Below, one piece after another: positions 1 to 6,759 of a stretch of 64,000 nt of DNA (the stretch's first letter is position 1; each line of letters starts with the position of its first letter). The notes under the pieces are model-generated. The model made no database searches, was not told the DNA's origin, and saw nothing but the letters and a program-made list of their open reading frames with translations. Source of the stretch: a virus; the IMG/VR virus record IMGVR_UViG_3300021962_000074, positions 1 to 64,000 of that record; one strand, written 5' to 3'. The position numbers were made by a program, and so were the translations under genes.

Positions 1-5
1 GGTCC

Positions 6-145
6 ATGTCATGCATGACATCGAAGGCTAGAGCGGAAGTGTGTAGGACATACGGACTAGGGAAGCCTGAAAGGGCAGGAGGTTAACGAGTCCCTCCCCT
101 AGAGTCCCAAAAAGGACACACGACGAACCACCGCTAACAAACTAG
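6..145 (+). ncRNA. structured ncRNA of unknown family (possibly 5'-truncated by window edge)
   Basis: Nested helices AGCGG(32-36)/CCGCT(131-135), GTGTGT(39-44)/ACACAC(116-121), GGACT(54-58)/AGTCC(103-107); palindromic hairpin 6-21; no ORF. Confidence 0.55.
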
Positions 146-156
146 GTTCAAGAATT

Positions 157-296
157 TGGCTTGTCGTCTTAACTGGATAAGACGCATTCTAGTAGAGAGA
201 CCGAGTAGGGAAGTCCACTGGCTGCATCTAGGTTCGAGTCCTAGAGACTTCGTGAAAAGGTTGGAATGAAATGTGGGTTCGAGTCCCGCCAAGTCG
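157..296 (+). ncRNA. tRNA-like RNA with about 75-nt insertion replacing the anticodon loop and a second T-arm
   Basis: Acceptor TGGCTTG/CAAGTCG, D-arm GTCT-taactggata-AGAC, anticodon stem CATTC/GAATG, T-arm GTGGG-TTCGAGT-CCCGC; internal TCTAGG-TTCGAGT-CCTAGA; no encoded CCA. Confidence 0.75.
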
Positions 297-329
297 TTGA
301 TTTGATGGAGTTTTCGTAAGCGACTGATT
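290..329 (-). promoter_or_regulatory. two tandem IHF-consensus sites (27-nt spacing)
   Basis: Reverse complements AATCAAcgacTTG and AATCAGtcgcTTA match WATCARNNNNTTR. Confidence 0.55.
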
Positions 330-346
330 TGATGGAGTTTTTTTTA

Positions 347-376
347 GTTTACTTTTCAGTCCTAATGTAGGATAAT
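347..376 (+). promoter_or_regulatory. T4-type early promoter driving the ncRNA/tRNA region
   Basis: GTTTACT-N17-GATAAT with T-rich upstream tract; same architecture at 11435. Confidence 0.65.
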
Positions 377-381
377 GGTAT

Positions 382-522
382 CGTGGTAAGGTGATTCGAA
401 GCCTACGGGAAAGCCCGCCAAGTGCGGAACGTAACCTTCACAGGTCGGCGTAGGGAGAGGAAGATCACCACGTAGCGGGAGGCGGGAAGTCGGTGAAAAC
501 CCGACGGCAGGGGGCACGCTAC
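382..522 (+). ncRNA. structured ncRNA of unknown family
   Basis: CGTGGT/ACCACG, CCTACG/CGTAGG, GTAGCG/CGCTAC, GTCGG-TGAAAAC-CCGAC; begins at predicted TSS, ends in T-run. Confidence 0.65.
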
Positions 523-544
523 ATTTTTTGATAAATCAGAGTTT

Positions 545-662
545 TGCTGCTCTGACGCACGGCTAACTTAGGGGTTGTCAATTATTGACTTCCAACCGAT
601 GCGAATAGGTGAGTCGGTTCTTGTACTGTATCAGTACAGGCGCGCAAAAACCCCTAGCAGCA
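545..662 (+). ncRNA. structured multibranch ncRNA of unknown family
   Basis: TGCTGCT/AGCAGCA, TAGGGGTT/AACCCCTA and three internal hairpins. Confidence 0.65.
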
Positions 663-667
663 TTTCT

Positions 668-778
668 GGATCTGAGTCCTAAGAGCACTCAGAGTGCAGT
701 CGTCCGCAGCCGCACAAAGGGTTGCCCTGCAAACGGTAAGCAGGATCTCTGACGCATTGCGCCGATCAGAGCGTTCAT
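668..778 (+). ncRNA. structured ncRNA of unknown family
   Basis: Serial hairpins GCACT/AGTGC, GCAGCC/GGTTGC, CCTGC/GCAGG, CTCTGA/TCAGAG. Confidence 0.5.
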
Positions 779-787
779 TAACAATTT

Positions 788-964
788 GCGATTTTTGTAT
801 TCGCGCCACCCAGATGACGCAAGTCTAGATGGGAGCGTAACGGTGAACCCTCGATGTACTGAGGCAACTCATGACAACGTCCGTCAAGCGTTGTATTAGA
901 GAACAGTTTAAGAAACTGGGTAACCCCTGCGCCGAGTTGGGGGTGAATGGCGGATACAAATCGC
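788..964 (+). ncRNA. structured multibranch ncRNA of unknown family (177 nt)
   Basis: Closing helix GCGATTT-TTGTATTCGC/GCGGATACAA-ATCGC; two GCAA tetraloop hairpins; ACAACG/CGTTGT. Confidence 0.7.
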
Positions 965-966
965 TG

Positions 967-1003
967 CCAGTGTGGGTGTCACTGGAAATAAGAAACCACC
1001 CAC
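967..1003 (+). ncRNA. compact H-type pseudoknot upstream of first tRNA
   Basis: CCAGTG/CACTGG stem, loop TGGGTG pairs with CACCCA(997-1002), A-rich linker. Confidence 0.55.
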
Positions 1004-1010
1004 CGATTTC

Positions 1011-1084
1011 GGGGGATTAGTTAAATGGGATAACCTCTGCCTTGCACGCAGAAGTTGACAGTTCGATTCTGTCATCCTCCACCA
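1011..1084 (+). tRNA. tRNA-Ala(UGC)
   Basis: Cloverleaf, G3:U70, CCA. Confidence 0.95.
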
Positions 1085-1089
1085 AATTT

Positions 1090-1166
1090 GGGTCTATAGT
1101 ATAACGGTTTATTATCTGTGACTCTTAATCACTAGGATGTAGGTTCGAATCCTACTAGACCCACCA
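1090..1166 (+). tRNA. tRNA-Lys(CUU)
   Basis: Cloverleaf, CCA. Confidence 0.93.
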
Positions 1167-1172
1167 ATTTAT

Positions 1173-1249
1173 GCCCTGTTAGTTCAGAGGATTAGAACGC
1201 GACGCTACGAACGTCGAGGTCGGGAGTTCGAGTCTCTCACAGGGTGCCA
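1173..1249 (+). tRNA. tRNA-Arg(ACG)
   Basis: Cloverleaf, CCA. Confidence 0.95.
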
Positions 1250-1254
1250 GTTAT

Positions 1255-1338
1255 GCGCAGGTGGTGGAATGGTATACACGCTAGTCTTAGGAACTAGTGG
1301 CGAAAGTCGTGCGAGTTCGAGTCTCGCCCTGCGCACCA
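1255..1338 (+). tRNA. tRNA-Leu(UAG)
   Basis: Cloverleaf with variable arm, CCA. Confidence 0.95.
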
Positions 1339-1342
1339 AATT

Positions 1343-1545
1343 GTCAGAGTCGTGGCTGACGTTATAGTGTCCACGAACAGTAGCCTAACTGAGTTTTGGC
1401 ATGTAGTATCTGGTCGCTGGGATGCGACAACAGAGAAGCCAAGAACGTGAATGAGCGTTTGGGTCAACCACGACATCTACGCAAGGAACGGCAAGAGGAG
1501 GAGTGGGAGCATGCGCGGACGTGCGTTACAAAAACCGAGTCCGCA
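1343..1545 (+). ncRNA. structured ncRNA (about 200 nt) between tRNA-Leu and tRNA-Asp
   Basis: GTCGTGGCTGAC(1349-1360)/GTCAACCACGAC(1463-1474) 11 of 12 bp, inner TTGGC/GCCAA and GTCGC/GCGAC, 3' hairpin GCGGAC/GTCCGC. Confidence 0.65.
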
Positions 1546-1552
1546 AGATTTT

Positions 1553-1629
1553 GGTCTGTTAGTGTAGTTGGTGAACATGCCTGCCTGTCACGCAGGAGAT
1601 CACGGGTTCGAGTCCCGTACAGACCGCCA
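1553..1629 (+). tRNA. tRNA-Asp(GUC)
   Basis: Cloverleaf, CCA. Confidence 0.95.
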
Positions 1630-1635
1630 AATTTT

Positions 1636-1684
1636 CTGTCTCTGATGAGTCCGTAGGGACGAAACGCAGTGATGCGTCAGACAG
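1636..1684 (+). ncRNA. type I hammerhead ribozyme (predicted cleavage after C1678)
   Basis: Stem I CTGTCT/AGACAG, CTGATGA, stem II GTCC-gtag-GGAC, GAAA, stem III CGCA-gtga-TGCG, GTC cleavage triplet. Confidence 0.92.
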
Positions 1685-1790
1685 CGAATCTACCTTGTGG
1701 TGTAAGGTTTGCAAAGTTGATTAGGTCTCTGAAATATATTGACAAACGGCATCATATGCACTGCCTAGTAGACTTTCAGAGTGAACCACA
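1685..1790 (+). ncRNA. pseudoknotted ncRNA downstream of the hammerhead
   Basis: ACCTT/AAGGT hairpin whose loop GTGGT pairs with ACCAC(1785-1789); inner helix CTCTGAAA/TTTCAGAG. Confidence 0.55.
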
Positions 1791-1797
1791 TTTTTTT

Positions 1798-1874
1798 GGG
1801 TGTGTGGCACAGTTGGTTAGCGCACAGTCCTGATAAGACTGAGGTCGGTGGTTCGAATCCACCCACACCCACCA
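1798..1874 (+). tRNA. tRNA-Ile(GAU)
   Basis: Cloverleaf, CCA. Confidence 0.95.
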
Positions 1875-1878
1875 ATTT

Positions 1879-1955
1879 CGGAGTGTAGCACAGTCTGGTA
1901 GTGCGCTTGCTTTGGGAGCAAGATGTCGGGAGTTCGAATCTCTCCACTCCGACCA
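1879..1955 (+). tRNA. tRNA-Pro(UGG)
   Basis: Cloverleaf, CCA. Confidence 0.95.
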
Positions 1956-1961
1956 GTTTAT

Positions 1962-2036
1962 GGTTCCTTCGTCTAGCGGCTAGGACACAACCCTCTCAAG
2001 GTTGGAACACGGGTTCGATTCCCGTAGGAACTGCCA
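1962..2036 (+). tRNA. tRNA-Glu(CUC)
   Basis: Cloverleaf, CCA. Confidence 0.95.
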
Positions 2037-2042
2037 GTTTAT

Positions 2043-2117
2043 TGGCGAGTAGATCAGTGGTAGATCAGCTGACTGTTAATCAGTATGTCGTAGGTTCGAT
2101 CCCTACCTCGCCAGCCA
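2043..2117 (+). tRNA. tRNA-Asn(GUU)
   Basis: Cloverleaf, CCA. Confidence 0.95.
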
Positions 2118-2122
2118 AATAT

Positions 2123-2197
2123 GCCCGTATAGCACAGTGGTAGTGCAATCGCCTTGTAAGCGATAGGTCCTCTGTTCGAATCAGAGTGCGGGCACCA
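2123..2197 (+). tRNA. tRNA-Thr(UGU)
   Basis: Cloverleaf, CCA. Confidence 0.95.
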
Positions 2198-2202
2198 GTT
2201 TT

Positions 2203-2278
2203 GCGAGATTAACTCAGTTGGTAGAGTGTCGCCTTTACACGGCGAATGTCGGGAGTTCGAGCCTCTCATCTCGCACCA
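2203..2278 (+). tRNA. tRNA-Val(UAC)
   Basis: Cloverleaf, CCA. Confidence 0.95.
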
Positions 2279-2280
2279 AT

Positions 2281-2355
2281 GGTGACTATGGTGTAATGGT
2301 AGCACAAAAGTTTGTGGCACTTTTAGCGTCGGATCGTAACCGTCTAGTCACCCCA
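2281..2355 (+). tRNA. tRNA-His(GUG), non-canonical T-loop
   Basis: G-1:C73, T-loop ATCGTAA, CCA. Confidence 0.88.
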
Positions 2356-2361
2356 GTTTAT

Positions 2362-2436
2362 GCGGATGTAGCACAGTGGTAGTGCTTCTGCTTGCCAAGC
2401 AGAAGGTCGTGAGTTCGAATCTCATCATCCGCTCCA
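2362..2436 (+). tRNA. tRNA-Gly(GCC)
   Basis: Cloverleaf, U73, CCA. Confidence 0.95.
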
Positions 2437-2441
2437 ATTCA

Positions 2442-2493
2442 TGTGAACCAACTAACTGTGATATCTTCCACAATCGGAAGAGTAGCGTTCACA
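2442..2493 (+). ncRNA. small structured RNA in tRNA array
   Basis: TGTGAAC/GTTCACA closing stem, inner TCTTCC/GGAAGA. Confidence 0.4.
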
Positions 2494-2502
2494 CTCTCTT
2501 AT

Positions 2503-2577
2503 GTTCCCTTCATCTAGCGGTTAGGATGCTTCCCTTTCAAGGAAGCCACACGGGTTCGAATCCCGTAGGGAACGCCA
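2503..2577 (+). tRNA. tRNA-Glu(UUC)
   Basis: Cloverleaf, CCA. Confidence 0.95.
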
Positions 2578-2581
2578 ATTT

Positions 2582-2659
2582 TGCAGGATGTGTGCTAGCA
2601 GTAATGTATAGCCTCAATCGGATGCCTGGAGTGAGCAAACCCAACTATCCCATCCTGCA
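2582..2659 (+). ncRNA. tRNA-sized structured RNA lacking a T-arm
   Basis: Perfect 9-bp terminal helix TGCAGGATG/CATCCTGCA, 78 nt, occupies a tRNA slot. Confidence 0.45.
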
Positions 2660-2669
2660 TCTTTTTTAT

Positions 2670-2743
2670 TGAGGGATCGTCTAAAGGCAGGACGCATGAC
2701 TTTGAATCATGCTATCTTGGTTCGAATCCAAGTCCCTCAGCCA
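2670..2743 (+). tRNA. tRNA-Gln(UUG)
   Basis: Cloverleaf, U1:A72, CCA. Confidence 0.95.
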
Positions 2744-2745
2744 AT

Positions 2746-2820
2746 GGGTCTGTGGCGCAATGGTAGCGCAGTTGGCTTTTAACCAATTGGTTCCGAGTTC
2801 GAGTCTCGGCGGACCCACCA
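2746..2820 (+). tRNA. tRNA-Lys(UUU)
   Basis: Cloverleaf, CCA. Confidence 0.95.
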
Positions 2821-2826
2821 ATTTTC

Positions 2827-2900
2827 GCCCTCTTAGTTAAAAAGCATAACACATTCTTGGTAAGAATGAGTCGGTGGAGCGTTACCACCAGAGGGCACCA
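2827..2900 (+). tRNA. tRNA-Thr(GGU), non-canonical elbow
   Basis: All stems intact; D-loop AG instead of GG; T-loop AGCGTTA; CCA. Confidence 0.87.
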
Positions 2901-2903
2901 GTT

Positions 2904-2978
2904 TGCAGTGTGGAGAAGTAGAAACTCGCTAGGCTCATAACCTGGAGATCATGGGTGCAAATCCCATCACTGCTACCA
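2904..2978 (+). tRNA. tRNA-fMet(CAU), initiator-like
   Basis: U1:U72 mismatch, CAU anticodon, T-loop TGCAAAT, CCA. Confidence 0.85.
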
Positions 2979-2983
2979 ATTAT

Positions 2984-3068
2984 GGACAAGTGGGTGAGTG
3001 GTTAAAACCGACTGACTGTAAATCAGTTGCCTACGGCTACGGTGGTTCGAATCCATCCTTGTCCACCA
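2984..3068 (+). tRNA. tRNA-Tyr(GUA)
   Basis: Cloverleaf with variable arm, CCA. Confidence 0.95.
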
Positions 3069-3076
3069 ATTTTTTT

Positions 3077-3166
3077 GGAAGAGTGGCAGAGTCTGGTTTA
3101 TTGCACTTGTCTTGAAAACAAGCAACCGTAAAAGGTTCGTGGGTTCAAATCCTACCTCTTCCGCCA
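3077..3166 (+). tRNA. tRNA-Ser(UGA)
   Basis: Long variable arm, G73, CCA. Confidence 0.95.
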
Positions 3167-3170
3167 ATTT

Positions 3171-3244
3171 GCCTCGCTGGTGTAACGGTAACATAACTGT
3201 CTCCAAAACAGTTGTTGGGAGTTCGAGTCTCTCGCGGGGTGCCA
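3171..3244 (+). tRNA. tRNA-Trp(CCA)
   Basis: Cloverleaf, CCA. Confidence 0.93.
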
Positions 3245-3249
3245 GTTTT

Positions 3250-3326
3250 GCGGTCGTAGTTCAGTTGGATAGAACATCTGCCTTCTAAGCAGAGAGTCGG
3301 GGGTTCGAATCCCTCCGATCGCGCCA
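3250..3326 (+). tRNA. tRNA-Arg(UCU)
   Basis: Cloverleaf, CCA. Confidence 0.95.
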
Positions 3327-3331
3327 ATTAT

Positions 3332-3421
3332 GGAGACTTGGCTGAGTGGTCGATAGCGGCATCCTGCTAAGATGTTTTTCGTGAAAGCGAAACGTGGGTT
3401 CGAATCCCACAGTCTCCGCCA
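3332..3421 (+). tRNA. tRNA-Ser(GCU)
   Basis: Long variable arm, CCA. Confidence 0.95.
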
Positions 3422-3426
3422 ATTAT

Positions 3427-3502
3427 GGTGAGGTAGCATAGCGGCTAATGCAGCACTTTCATACGGTGTTTATCGTGGGTTCGAGTCCCACCCTCACTAC
3501 CA
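3427..3502 (+). tRNA. tRNA-Met(CAU), probably elongator
   Basis: Cloverleaf, anticodon loop TTCATAC, paired 1:72; Ile2 identity not excluded. Confidence 0.85.
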
Positions 3503-3503
3503 T

Positions 3504-3579
3504 GTCGCCTCAGCTGAACTAGTGATAGCGTCTGCCTGAAGAGCAGAAGAGGTTGGAGCGTAACCAACAGGCGACACCA
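3504..3579 (+). tRNA. tRNA-Phe(GAA), non-canonical elbow
   Basis: Stems intact; C8, D-loop AG, T-loop AGCGTAA; CCA. Confidence 0.87.
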
Positions 3580-3584
3580 ATTTT

Positions 3585-3661
3585 GCCCAGATGACGGAAT
3601 TGGCATACGTGTCTGACTCAAAATCAGGATTTTGTGGGTTCGACTCCCACTCTGGGCACCA
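3585..3661 (+). tRNA. tRNA-Leu(CAA) without long variable arm
   Basis: 77 nt, Leu-type D-arm, A73, CCA. Confidence 0.9.
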
Positions 3662-3663
3662 AT

Positions 3664-3738
3664 GTTACGGTGGCTGAAAGGTTAGGCGGCAGTCTGCAAA
3701 ACTGCTTCATGCTGGTTCGATTCCAGTCCGTAACTCCA
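3664..3738 (+). tRNA. tRNA-Cys(GCA)
   Basis: Cloverleaf, U73, CCA. Confidence 0.95.
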
Positions 3739-3744
3739 ATTTAT

Positions 3745-3818
3745 TGAGGGATCGTCTAACGGCAGGACGCAAGACTCTGACTCTTGCTATCTAGGTTCGA
3801 ATCCTAGTCCCTCAGCCA
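3745..3818 (+). tRNA. tRNA-Gln(CUG)
   Basis: Cloverleaf, close paralog of 2670-2743, CCA. Confidence 0.95.
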
Positions 3819-3823
3819 ATCAT

Positions 3824-3899
3824 GGGCGTGTAGTTCAGTGGTATGAACGTCTCCTTGACATGGAGAAGGTCGCTGGTTCGATCCCAGCCATGCCCACCA
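3824..3899 (+). tRNA. tRNA-Val(GAC)
   Basis: Cloverleaf, CCA. Confidence 0.95.
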
Positions 3900-3900
3900 T

Positions 3901-3975
3901 ATCCTCGTGGTGAAACGGATATCACGGTTCTCTCCTAAAGAATCATTGCAGGTTCGATTCCTGCCGAGGATGCCA
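3901..3975 (+). tRNA. tRNA-Arg(CCU)
   Basis: Cloverleaf, CCA. Confidence 0.93.
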
Positions 3976-3983
3976 ACTAAATA
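3976..3983 (+). promoter_or_regulatory. T4-type late promoter (ACTAAATA)
   Basis: TAAATA 5 nt before ATG 3989. Confidence 0.55.
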
Positions 3984-3988
3984 GATGC

Positions 3989-4492
3989 ATGGAACCAAAA
4001 ATCTATACATACGACGAAGTCCGCGCCATGGCGATGGATGGCGACATCATGTTTCTTACAGTCAATAAGAAAGATTATCTTTCTAGACTGACGTCGTGGT
4101 TCACCAAATCGCCGTTCACACATGCGGCATTTTTGTTTTGGTATCATGGTCGTCTAATGGTTGTTGAATCAACCACGCATGGTGGCATTCGCATCGTGCA
4201 AGCATCTACATACAAGGATCGCAATTTTGGATTGATTGCTGCACCACGTCCGTGGGAGTTCATCATTGATGATGCCCTAGTGCGTAGTGGCACTGCAGAG
4301 TATGGCTGGTTCAGTGCGATGTATATCGGAATGCGTGAATTTGCTTTAAAACAATTCAATGTACGTCTACCAGTCAACAAGAACAATCGCAACAAAGCCT
4401 GTAGTGAATTTGTGGCAGAAGTGTTAGGTCTAAAAGATGTTGACATTTCGCCAAAAAGATTATATGATATATTAAATGCTCCTGTAGTGTAA
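3989..4492 (+). CDS. permuted papain-like NlpC/P60 (YiiX/YebB-like) hydrolase
   Basis: GDIMF...SPFTHAAF...VVES...ACSEFVAE, His-before-Cys arrangement. Confidence 0.75.
   Translation: MEPKIYTYDEVRAMAMDGDIMFLTVNKKDYLSRLTSWFTKSPFTHAAFLFWYHGRLMVVESTTHGGIRIVQASTYKDRNFGLIAAPRPWEFIIDDALVRSGTAEYGWFSAMYIGMREFALKQFNVRLPVNKNNRNKACSEFVAEVLGLKDVDISPKRLYDILNAPVV
4440..4468 (+). promoter_or_regulatory. sigma70-type promoter inside CDS, upstream of tRNA-Ile(UAU)
   Basis: TTGACA-N17-TATGAT. Confidence 0.7.
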
Positions 4493-4572
4493 CGGTTAGC
4501 ACGCGAGGCTTATACTCTCGATCTCCGCCAGATTAGCGGGTAGTCTAGGTTCGAATCCTAGCAGGAGCACCA
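4478..4572 (+). tRNA. tRNA-Ile(UAU) with long variable arm
   Basis: GCTCCTG/CAGGAGC-A-CCA, loop CT-TAT-AC, 24-nt variable region with CCGC/GCGG hairpin, canonical T-arm. Confidence 0.85.
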
Positions 4573-4582
4573 ATAAATAAAT

Positions 4583-4656
4583 GCGGGGTTGGCATAGTGG
4601 TTGTGTCCCAGCCTTCCAAGCTGGCTACATGGGTTCGATTCCCATACTCCGCTCCA
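4583..4656 (+). tRNA. tRNA-Gly(UCC)
   Basis: Cloverleaf, U73, CCA. Confidence 0.93.
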
Positions 4657-4680
4657 GTTTTTTAGAAGGGAGATAAGAAG

Positions 4681-4944
4681 ATGAAGAAGTTCCTAACAGC
4701 AATGGTTATGACTACAGTTGTGACTACATCACATGCTGATGTGAATACAGCCGTTCCTGCACCAACAGAGCAAGAATCATTTACAGTCAAGTGGCATCCA
4801 ACTTCAGTGGTCATCGGCGCAATCGCTGGTGGTGCACTTGTTGGTGGAGTCGGTGCAGTGATCGTCGGCGGTCTCGTCGGCGAAGGTGTCATTCGTATTA
4901 TTAAGAAGAAACAAGAGCAGACTGCTAAGGAAACGCAAGAATGA
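4681..4944 (+). CDS. signal-peptide protein with glycine-zipper membrane segment
   Basis: N-terminal signal, GAIAGGALVGGVGAVIVGG; RBS upstream. Confidence 0.7.
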   Translation: MKKFLTAMVMTTVVTTSHADVNTAVPAPTEQESFTVKWHPTSVVIGAIAGGALVGGVGAVIVGGLVGEGVIRIIKKKQEQTAKETQE

Positions 4945-5111
4945 TTCGTATTCTATTCCTAGCAGCATTCCTACTCATTGGCTGTGAAAAAGATCCAGTC
5001 ACCACCGAGGCTCGACTACCTGAGCCAACTTTCAAAGTCAACACTCCGCAGCAATGGAAAGAATATTGCGCAAGAGAGGGACAGGAGGATCCAGCATGTC
5101 CTTCCAACTAA
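4941..5111 (+). CDS. 56-aa lipoprotein (not in ORF track), resembles BTLCP N-terminal segment
   Basis: MIRILFLAAFLLIG-C lipobox; PQQWKEYCAREGQEDPAC; ATGA overlap with previous gene. Confidence 0.7.
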   Translation: MIRILFLAAFLLIGCEKDPVTTEARLPEPTFKVNTPQQWKEYCAREGQEDPACPSN

Positions 5112-5506
5112 ACGAAAACAACGAAGTCATACAGACTCCAGAACTCATGGAGTTACTAAACAAGACCAATCGTCACTTCAATAAATTTCGCTATGAATAC
5201 GATGAGAATCTTCATCGTCAGATTGACTACTGGACTGCACTGATTGACAAATACAATGCTGGTGACTGCGACGACTACGCACTGTCAAAGCGCAAGAGGC
5301 TGATTGAAGAAGGTGTTCCATATGAATGCCTGTTTCCTACAATCTGCACCGTGGGTAAAGAAGGTCATCTTGTTCTTGTCGTAAGAACAGACATCTGCGA
5401 TCTTCTTCTGGACAACATTGAGCAGCGAGTGGTTGGCGTTGATCGCGTGAACTACAAGTGGTGGTATCGTTTAGATCCCGTGAACAAATCATGGGTAATG
5501 TTATAG
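5096..5506 (+). CDS. bacterial transglutaminase-like cysteine proteinase (BTLCP/LapG-like) catalytic domain
   Basis: GDCDDYALSKRKRL...GHLVLVV...LLLDN (Cys-His-Asp); GGAGG before ATG 5096. Confidence 0.85.
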   Translation: MSFQLNENNEVIQTPELMELLNKTNRHFNKFRYEYDENLHRQIDYWTALIDKYNAGDCDDYALSKRKRLIEEGVPYECLFPTICTVGKEGHLVLVVRTDICDLLLDNIEQRVVGVDRVNYKWWYRLDPVNKSWVML

Positions 5507-5509
5507 TAT

Positions 5510-5594
5510 GCGAGTGTGGCGGAATCGGTATACGCAGCAGACTTAAAATCTGCCACTTTCGAGTTTGTGGGTTCGAGTCCCACCACTCGCACCA
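5510..5594 (+). tRNA. tRNA-Leu(UAA)
   Basis: Cloverleaf with variable arm, CCA. Confidence 0.95.
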
Positions 5595-5602
5595 GGATAT
5601 AT

Positions 5603-5761
5603 ATGAAAAGAGCATGGATAATTTGGGCAAAGGCACTGGGCGAGAAAGCCGCAGATTGCGATAGAACCGCAGACAGAGTTGCTATTGTGCGAACATGCAT
5701 CGTGGGCATAAACGTGCTCACTTGTTTTTTTATTGTTGCAAATATAATTCATAACTGGTAA
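5603..5761 (+). CDS. small conserved T4-like phage membrane protein
   Basis: MKRAWIIWAKALGEKA...ADRVAIVRT...IVANIIHNW; start moved off the tRNA. Confidence 0.75.
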   Translation: MKRAWIIWAKALGEKAADCDRTADRVAIVRTCIVGINVLTCFFIVANIIHNW

Positions 5762-6186
5762 TGAAAACAACTGATCTAGATGCAATGCAACACCACTCCA
5801 AGGAATATCCGATGGAGGTGGGTGCACCAAAGTTTGAACTTGAGCCAATACAAGATAAGAAAGATTTGGCTCTGCGTTCAGCAAAGTTACATGCGCAAAA
5901 AGAATATGAACGCATCATGGAATCAGTGCGTGTGTTGCAGAAGCAAGCAGAAGAACTCAAAGAAAGATTGGGTCTGTCTCAATTAGTGCATGGTGCAACG
6001 TATACGTTTGAACCAACAGCAGGTAAGAGTTACTGGCTGGTGGAAGATACTTATGCAAACATTACAAGGCTGGTGGTGCTTGGTCCTAAGAACTGGAGTT
6101 GCGGACCACCAGAATATTATAAGTATCTGGCACACATAAAGTGTCTAGGCGATAATACATGGGAGCCAATGAGAGAAGAGGAATAG
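5761..6186 (+). CDS. hypothetical protein (DUF2452-like)
   Basis: YPMEVGAPKF, coiled coil, FEPTAGKSYWL. Confidence 0.6.
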   Translation: MKTTDLDAMQHHSKEYPMEVGAPKFELEPIQDKKDLALRSAKLHAQKEYERIMESVRVLQKQAEELKERLGLSQLVHGATYTFEPTAGKSYWLVEDTYANITRLVVLGPKNWSCGPPEYYKYLAHIKCLGDNTWEPMREEE

Positions 6187-6189
6187 ACT

Positions 6190-6759
6190 ATGGCGCATCC
6201 TGAACAACAAGCATATGTTGCAACTGTAAAGAATTTCTTCCCTAAGTATTTTGAGAATTGCACAGTACTGGAAATAGGAAGTTACAATATCAATGGCACG
6301 GTGAGAGATTTTTTCATCAATTGCAATTATTTGGGAATTGATTTGGCTCCTGGTCCTGGTGTTGACTTAGTTTGTGCTGGTCAAGAATTTAATGCTCCAA
6401 GTAATATGTATGATACTGTAATTTCCACTGAGTGTTTTGAGCATAATCCATATTGGAAAGAAACATTCTTAAATATGATCAGAGTTTGCAGACCAGGAGG
6501 TCTTGTCATATTCACTTGTGCTGGTAGAAACAGAGTTGAACATGGCACAGCTAGAATGAATCCGCAATCTTCCCCATTTACCATCTCAAATGGTTGGGAG
6601 AACTATTACATGAATCTGGAAGAGAGACACTTCCTTTATGCTGGTATCAATTGCGAACAATATTTCTGGGCACATAAGTTTTACGAAAATTCCAACTATC
6701 AACCAGCAGAACCAATCGGAGCTGTTGATCTTTGCTTTTGGGGAATTAAGAAGGTTTAA
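6190..6759 (+). CDS. class I SAM-dependent methyltransferase
   Basis: VLEIGS, YLGID, YDTVISTECFEH, RVCRPGG. Confidence 0.88.
   Translation: MAHPEQQAYVATVKNFFPKYFENCTVLEIGSYNINGTVRDFFINCNYLGIDLAPGPGVDLVCAGQEFNAPSNMYDTVISTECFEHNPYWKETFLNMIRVCRPGGLVIFTCAGRNRVEHGTARMNPQSSPFTISNGWENYYMNLEERHFLYAGINCEQYFWAHKFYENSNYQPAEPIGAVDLCFWGIKKV

Follow-up and report, generated by a model that had tools for sequence, protein, structure and literature searches.

Candidate small RNA units interleaved with the tRNA genes of an uncultured T4-like phage, including a member of a hammerhead-capped RNA family

Layout, composition and folding of the non-tRNA units

The 64,000-nucleotide stretch analyzed here (the window) makes up the initial 64 kb of a 76.7-kb IMG/VR virus fragment (record IMGVR_UViG_3300021962_000074; approximately 44% complete), the source of which is an uncultured T4-like myovirus. 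The 5′ end of the fragment falls within a long array of tRNA genes, and the subject of this study is the sequence that precedes and separates the tRNAs in positions 1–2665. In the original prediction, which was made from the sequence alone, nearly all of this sequence was resolved into discrete modules, regarded as about ten unexplained structured noncoding RNAs (ncRNAs). The eleven modules, together with the hammerhead ribozyme and the spacer lying among them, are given in Table 1.

The predicted lack of coding capacity was confirmed: no credible open reading frame (ORF) exists in 1–2665, the longest being an 86-amino-acid (aa) TTG frame that runs across tRNA-Asp. The G+C content of the non-tRNA sequence there (1550 nucleotides, nt) is 0.485, which compares with 0.53 in the tRNAs and 0.41 in the remainder of the genome. 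Folding was evaluated as the z-score of the minimum free energy (MFE) against dinucleotide shuffles. The mean z was −1.75 for the 11 modules (range −0.1 to −3.0), −1.87 for 16 tRNAs of the array and −0.55 for 30 coding controls, it being noted that the module boundaries were drawn by eye and that selection bias therefore enters the z-scores and the closing helices. The strongest values were found for modules 10 and 11. Thus, the non-tRNA sequence is tRNA-like in G+C content and in folding.

Two structural features had been proposed for the modules, namely, closure of most of them by a terminal helix and G–U pairs that work on the plus strand. The former holds in part: terminal helices of 7–9 base pairs (bp) were found in modules 2, 4, 6, 10 and 11 but not in the others, and each exceeds the shuffles only marginally (for module 11, the untrimmed insert still yields a 7-bp terminal helix, which was equalled in 102 of 2000 shuffles). 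The latter was not borne out, because the G–U pairs show no asymmetry between the strands (35/376 on the plus strand and 28/361 on the minus strand). As had been noticed, the same short A/U-rich linkers occur at the tRNA–tRNA boundaries and at the module boundaries. Module 10, for example, begins 5 nt past the CCA of tRNA-Gly; CCA ends are encoded in the tRNAs that were read (up to 3502).

An early promoter had also been proposed at 347–376. A sigma-70-like site does exist at 348–376 (TTTACT-17-GATAAT, 9 of 12 positions), but sites of this kind are no more numerous than chance predicts (3 against 3.3), and the best promoter-like match, better than this one, is located at 1341–1368 inside module 8. 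In the spacer that carries the site, a 17-nt word (TGATTTGATGGAGTTTT) occurs twice within 298–341 with a spacing of 27 nt (repeat D12). Related strains align across 297–381 with 27 gaps, which fits the loss of one copy of this word. Other short repeats (D11, D13 and D19) and complementarities between modules and tRNAs (I4 and I5) were estimated to be at the chance level for a 2.7-kb self-comparison.

The sequences were then compared with Rfam (Rfam 15 for the family comparison). Nothing meaningful was found at E ≤ 10 for 1–1010 and 1336–1556, which hold modules 1–8, GOLLD and ROOL being included among the families, and modules 10 and 11 gave no match at E ≤ 1. Beyond the tRNAs, the hammerhead was the only element recognized, and modules 1–8, 10 and 11 are unmatched. 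Large ornate RNAs, such as GOLLD and ROOL, occur next to phage tRNAs, and here approximately 1 kb of continuous noncoding and structured-looking sequence lies before the first tRNA. The whole of 1–1010 might then be one large multi-domain RNA of this type. Such an arrangement is, however, very improbable: in addition to the Rfam result, the folds are local, no long-range helices above chance were found in the module region, a promoter-like site and U-rich linkers lie between the units, and single modules are lost or replaced in close strains that retain the others, as described below.

Table 1. Positions of the modules and associated features in the window, with their main characteristics
Feature	Position	Strand	Characteristics
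Module 1	1–145	+	Nested three-way fold; MFE z −1.5; possibly cut by the contig end
Module 2	157–296	+	Acceptor, D and T arms plus an insert of ~47 nt; no encoded CCA
A/U-rich spacer	297–381	+	17-nt repeat and sigma-70-like site (348–376)
Module 3 with U-rich tail	382–543	+	164-nt cassette; two-domain fold; G-rich internal loops; G+C 0.62; z −0.1
Module 4	545–662	+	z −2.5; 7-bp terminal helix, equalled in 96 of 2000 shuffles
Module 5	668–778	+	Multi-hairpin unit; z −2.5
Module 6	788–964	+	177-nt multibranch fold; z −2.4; 8-bp terminal helix, equalled in 32 of 2000 shuffles
Module 7	967–1003	+	Probable tRNA relic; acceptor-stem remnant
tRNA array, 33 genes	1011–5594	+	32 found by ARAGORN and 1 by Rfam only
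Module 8	1343–1545	+	203-nt hairpin series between tRNA-Leu and tRNA-Asp; z −1.2
Type I hammerhead (predicted)	1636–1684	+	Rfam 30.5 bits; predicted cleavage after C1678
Module 9	1679–1790	+	Member of the hammerhead-capped RNA family, model R1
Module 10	2442–2493	+	52 nt; 7-bp closing helix and 6-bp hairpin; z −3.0
Module 11	2582–2659	+	78 nt; 9-bp closing helix; between tRNA-Glu and tRNA-Gln; z −2.9

The hammerhead ribozyme and the RNA family linked to it

The presence of a hammerhead ribozyme within the array, which formed part of the original prediction, was verified by its complete core: CUGAUGA, GAAA and the GUC triplet occur in the correct order among three stems, of which stem I is open. 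The score against the Rfam model Hammerhead_1 (RF00163; E = 2e-4) does not reach the gathering score of 34, and the stems of this minimal, sub-threshold hammerhead are short. The exact core was found in 30 IMG/VR contigs. Among the 30 copies, stem III varies with its pairing kept, and stem I changes from CUGUCU/AGACAG to CUGCCU/AGGCAG. Judged from these characteristics, the element is very probably a canonical type I hammerhead that would cleave itself at the position predicted in Table 1. It is located 6 nt behind a tRNA, with the cleavage point 49 nt past the 3′ end of tRNA-Asp. Being of type I, the ribozyme would be cut close to its 3′ terminus, so that the cut would form the 5′ end of the RNA that follows rather than the 3′ end of tRNA-Asp.

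What follows the hammerhead in these contigs is of two kinds: one is a 5′ hairpin with a ribosome-binding site and an 81-aa ORF, and the other is an RNA of the family to which module 9 belongs. Among the loci L105–L134 (e.g., L109:5339-5584:+ and L105:233-478:+), many contigs of aquatic phages have a TATA-rich promoter-like stretch followed by the hammerhead and, immediately after it, the conserved 81-aa ORF (phrog_4973), and the 3′ strand of stem I can refold after cleavage as a 5′ hairpin (AGACAG...CUGUC). The 81-aa ORF is absent from the whole 76.7-kb fragment.

The RNAs of the second kind are 112–174 nt long and end with ACCAC(A) and a U-run, and the copy in the window is a divergent one. 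Its start had been placed at 1685 and was corrected to 1679, the hammerhead cleavage site. A covariance model (R1) was built from 10 copies, and with R1 and RNAalifold, 13 IMG/VR loci plus the window were recovered; the window copy, which is itself in the seed alignment, scored 62.4 bits (E = 1e-11), the lowest score in the family. In the 12 distinct sequences of the family, 96% of the cells are paired, and 10 of the 17 pairs show a compensatory change. The covariation score was 0.445, as compared with 0.18 for shuffles (0 of 500 as high) and at most 0.12 for slid partners.

Two helices are characteristic of the family. One is P2 (1687–1691 with 1705–1709 in the window), which shows five pair types at one position and encloses a conserved 14-nt loop, GACCUUGUGGUGUA; an internal hairpin also covaries. 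Another is P1, in which the loop sequence UGUGGU pairs with the 3′ ACCACA (1696–1701 with 1785–1790 in the window), likewise with compensatory changes. Because part of the GACCUUGUGGUGUA loop pairs with the 3′ end as P1, a pseudoknot is implied for the RNAs of this family by the predicted pairing. The family is absent from Rfam, and module 9 is a member of a well-supported RNA family that is new to that database. Two other pairings were considered and rejected: the GUAG:CUAC pseudoknot contact is not conserved, relatives reading GACC downstream instead of CUACC, and the acceptor-like GACCUUG/CAAGGAU pairing is not kept across the members, as judged by eye.

In all 13 IMG/VR loci, the family RNA lies behind this hammerhead, and it begins at the cleavage site in 9 loci and in the window, where it should be noted that the family loci were fetched via the hammerhead and that the link between the two is partly by design. 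In four loci (L120, L121, L127 and L132), approximately 100 nt of other sequence stands after the exact core before the family RNA, and in three of them (L120, L127 and L132), no canonical site was found adjoining the core. This interval may be a large stem III insertion or the mark of a disrupted ribozyme. A different hammerhead occurs together with the same 14-nt motif in one further locus (L291), which R1 does not match; beyond this locus, a search with the 14-mer GACCTTGTGGTGTA gave mostly chance matches.

Origin, strain variation and relatives of the other modules

Two or three of the modules are related to tRNAs, in different ways. In module 2, the anticodon loop is replaced by the insert of about 47 nt, which contains a second T-arm minihelix. 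With a relaxed threshold and introns allowed, ARAGORN reads this module as a tRNA-Arg(cct)-like gene with a 47-nt insert, while the Rfam tRNA model (RF00005) does not match it at E ≤ 10, and the lack of an encoded CCA sets it apart from those tRNAs that were read to their 3′ ends. The module is a scaffold of tRNA origin that can be compared with T4 rnaC. A search with the double T-loop pattern gave at least 119 loci, none of which is homologous to it. The inner part of module 2 possibly has a diverged paralogue in module 1, with modest support: the score of the local alignment is 39, whereas that of shuffles is 22.4 ± 4.0 with a maximum of 41 among 300. Module 7 is probably a tRNA relic, because the sequence at its 3′ end (997–1012) agrees with the tRNA-Ile/tRNA-Pro junction (1866–1881) in 15 of 16 positions (repeat D10), a kind of match for which we estimate a chance expectation of approximately 0.04. 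No residual match to the tRNA model was found in modules 3–6 and 8 at E ≤ 10, or in modules 10 and 11 at E ≤ 1 in Rfam.

The stretch was also found in sequencing runs of 12 studies (estuary, freshwater, lagoon, sediment and landfill), no RNA run being among those listed, and contigs from four of the runs (X3, X10, X11 and X18) were aligned to positions 1–6200. Module 8 has approximately 98% identity with contigs of X3 and X11, in which 7 differences were counted over 323 nt and 7 over 290 nt, and the stretch composed of the hammerhead, module 9 and tRNA is approximately 99% identical among close strains, a level also seen in the tRNA stretches. Adjacent ORF pieces in the X3 contigs have 86–95% identity, below modules 8 and 9.

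Apart from these conserved parts, whole units or large parts of them are gained, lost or swapped between close strains. In a 3.5-kb X10 contig, a joint 379→544 (side of 122 nt) removes module 3 with its U-rich tail and places the promoter-like site against module 4; the same joint occurs in X18 with a side of only 23 nt, which is below the caution line of the tool. This X10 contig is also without 666–745, the first 80 nt of module 5, and its interval from tRNA-Asp to the hammerhead is longer by approximately 105 nt. Module 4 aligns in the X10 relative with 26 gaps, and in an X11 contig, approximately 285 unalignable nt replace 666–1005. Module 1 gave no alignment in the long X10 contig, and shorter contigs from X3, X10 and X18 span approximately 20–147. 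The break points are mostly at or near the module boundaries of the original prediction.

The single-base variants were examined against the MFE folds. For the 26 listed in-module variants, 13 are unpaired, 11 keep the pairing and 2 break it. In module 6, A876G and U892C co-occur (X3 and X18), replacing a predicted A–U pair with G–C, and in module 5, the variants at paired positions (697, 722, 725 and 730) all retain the pairing; this suggests population-level support for the structures of these two modules. In module 2, G288A makes a U·G of the T-stem into U–A, and three other variants are in an unpaired bulge. Because only 40 of the 661 variants were listed, the evidence from strain variants is suggestive, not decisive.

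Distant homologues were searched for with blastn and nhmmer in three sets of loci, namely, 80 arrays reached via the neighbouring methyltransferase, 23 loci reached via an in-array ORF (viral and metagenome contigs) and the 30 hammerhead loci. Only tRNA-Phe and the hammerhead matched, and no homologue was found there for any module except module 9. Three distant arrays that were fetched with the 3′ part of tRNA-Asp as an anchor share tRNAs only. An exact 18-mer of module 8 has a single match, which lies in a coding region and was rejected as chance.

The tRNA arrays of related jumbo phages (L041, L055, L058, L059, L062, L066 and others) carry recurrent non-tRNA spacer families of their own: 24 clusters of 45–200 nt were obtained, several of which are closed by 7–9-bp helices. 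Hidden Markov models of the 24 families did not match the modules. At the Rfam gathering threshold, only tRNAs were found in the relatives' arrays, and none of the spacer families was in Rfam in the loci tested; many of them are short, closed by a hairpin and too alike for covariation. Since the relatives have their own recurrent spacer families, non-tRNA units seem to be common in such arrays and to turn over rapidly.

A role that tolerates this fast turnover and the swapping of units would be one in cis, in which the modules act as processing or folding insulators for the tRNA precursors and the A/U linkers as entry points for RNase E, with no role once released. The self-closed units, the linkers identical to those between tRNAs and the hairpin-closed spacer families of 45–73 nt in the arrays of related phages are all compatible with it. 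Nevertheless, such a role seems quite unlikely to be the explanation, because most tRNAs of the array are separated by 3–9 nt without any unit in between, the multibranch modules of 140–200 nt exceed what insulation needs, and the module 9 family keeps specific loops and also occurs outside tRNA arrays, before a gene.

Several of our results weigh against the modules being functional RNAs. One is that, for modules 1–8, 10 and 11, no homologue beyond near-identical strains was found in approximately 370 fetched loci. Another is that, in the X10 strain, the modules (approximately 96%) are conserved no better than the ORFs (96–98%). Module 3 folds at the shuffle level and is dispensable in a close strain. 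To these are added the boundaries drawn by eye and the small share of variants listed. For modules 1, 4, 8, 10 and 11, the support is limited to thermodynamics or near-strain conservation.

Most modules might therefore be non-functional debris (tRNA pseudogenes, recombination scars and duplicated spacers), with only the hammerhead and module 9 being functional. The folded appearance and the G+C content would then be inherited from the acceptor-like and T-arm-like helices of tRNA ancestors. Module 7 copies a tRNA 3′ end with its linker, module 2 keeps three tRNA arms without an anticodon and fails the Rfam tRNA model, and module 1 is perhaps a decayed paralogue of module 2. The presence and absence of stretches among near-identical strains and the lack of deep conservation in the fetched loci point in the same direction. 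However, nothing in modules 3–6, 8, 10 and 11 was matched by the tRNA model, 11 of the 13 variants at paired positions keep the pairing and include one compensatory double change, module 8 is approximately 98% identical over three runs, and the z-scores are strongest for modules 10 and 11. On balance, we consider the debris explanation, which is the main alternative, somewhat unlikely.

Some other characteristics of the array and of the fragment were noted. tRNA-Phe(GAA) at 3504–3576 (Rfam 45.8 bits) is missed by ARAGORN and apparently has a non-standard T-loop; tRNA-His (2282–2355) and tRNA-Thr(ggt) (2827–2900) seem to have similar loops without the usual TTCGA. tRNA-Ile(tat) at 4478–4572 is unusually long (91–97 nt), as it is in the arrays of L085, L094 and L124, which suggests a conserved long extra arm or insert. 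Two small cysteine-peptidase-like ORFs are located among the tRNAs. The ORF at 3989–4492 has a weak, below-cutoff match to permuted papain (C92), closest protein relatives with 83–89% identity and more than 170 metagenome homologues, which are mostly away from tRNAs; the ORF at 5054–5506 is of the BTLCP/C93 type. Putative homologues of T4 gp26 and gp51 are the basis on which the fragment is taken as T4-like. The nearest isolates have approximately 26% identity in a tail protein only, and GenBank phages match the region at tRNAs only.

Interpretation and comparison with known systems

The feature at 1–2665 is real and goes beyond chance, but it does not consist of ten validated ncRNAs. The original prediction is supported in that the modules are noncoding, lie on the strand of the tRNAs with the same spacing and are tRNA-like in G+C content and folding, in that a hammerhead would set the 5′ end of one of them and in that one of them shows covariation in relatives, whereas the count was overstated: module 7 is probably a relic, modules 1 and 2 appear to be tRNA-derived, and module 3 is absent from a strain and folds like its shuffles. 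The units can be grouped into one member of a well-supported family, two or three tRNA derivatives, two modules with population-level support and a remainder of candidates. As a whole, the region is best explained as the upstream portion of a tRNA operon of a phage in which RNA cassettes are passengers, most of them being genuine processed RNAs under selection; we put the probability of this explanation slightly above one half (approximately 0.55).

If the cassettes are such passengers, they would be co-transcribed with the tRNAs and released by the tRNA-maturation enzymes of the host together with RNase E-type cuts in the linkers. The closing helices of modules 2, 10 and 11, which resemble acceptor stems, might be sites of RNase P cleavage, and self-cleavage of the hammerhead would leave a 5′-OH on module 9. 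The closing helices would then shield the products, as in the species 1 and 2 RNAs of T4. As for their origin, modules 1, 2 and 7 may have arisen from duplicated tRNA genes, and the others may be newer acquisitions of the lineage.

With regard to the role of the products, we can offer suggestions of low confidence only. They may be accessory small RNAs that act on the RNA-handling proteins of the host or the phage, among which modules 1 and 2 might be tRNA mimics; for these two modules, decoy or tRNA-mimic roles are plausible. Module 9 might be a stable, 5′-OH-capped RNA, which in other phages could serve as the leader of a small gene. A more far-reaching proposal is that the operon delivers at least ten functional small RNAs that are swapped between strains, comprising mimics directed against tRNA-targeting defence nucleases or modification enzymes and a hammerhead-capped pseudoknotted class; in this full form, we regard it as doubtful. 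If it were true, such a small-RNA arsenal would represent counter-defence or host takeover at the RNA level and could give a function to the T4 species 1 and 2 RNAs.

The likeness to the latter RNAs, which had been pointed out in the original prediction, is close in its arrangement. T4 rnaC (139 nt) and rnaD (119 nt) are located directly behind tRNA-Arg on the tRNA strand with a separation of a few nt, the modules here likewise being on the tRNA strand with short linkers, and rnaC has a tRNA-like T-arm near its 3′ end, like module 2. In sequence, nhmmer with rnaC and rnaD gave no match in 1–2700 of the window at E ≤ 10. The difference is one of number and variability: as compared with the two units of T4, approximately 11 are present here, interleaved with 33 tRNAs, and they are strain-variable, one being capped by a hammerhead. 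By analogy, the arrangement appears to be an expanded and fast-changing form of the T4 species 1 and 2 RNA setup. The function of rnaC and rnaD is still unknown (PMC12685909). The two non-tRNA RNAs of T4 have been without a known function for fifty years, and a lineage with about 11 such units provides a natural comparative system, in which tRNA-derived units, units that vary between co-occurring strains and a unit tied to a ribozyme can be compared.

Among ribozymes, a role in dividing long phage transcripts into units has been proposed for phage hammerheads (Perreault et al. 2011, PMC3088659). The copy in the window differs from the known ones in that it lies within a tRNA array and that its copies precede one structured RNA or a 5′ hairpin with a small ORF; no description of this pairing of a hammerhead with a structured RNA was found in the literature searched. 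The theta ribozymes, which resemble that of hepatitis delta virus (HDV-like), occur directly downstream of phage tRNA genes, and processing of the tRNA 3′ trailer has been postulated for them (PMC10879173). They are likewise small self-cleaving elements behind phage tRNAs, but they differ from the present hammerhead in class and in the end that is defined.

GOLLD and ROOL share with the present units the character of noncoding structured RNA near phage tRNAs, whereas the units here are 37–203 nt long, vary between strains and are not matched by Rfam. The most concrete product of this analysis is the hammerhead-capped family, which has strong covariation, comes from phages of several aquatic samples and is found in tRNA arrays and, elsewhere, as the leader of a small conserved gene; it also assigns a specific partner to phage hammerheads, which would generate an exact 5′-OH end on it. 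Thus, systems of this kind have precedents in T4 rnaC and rnaD and in the phage hammerheads, while its scale, the cassette behaviour at the strain level and the hammerhead-capped family are new.

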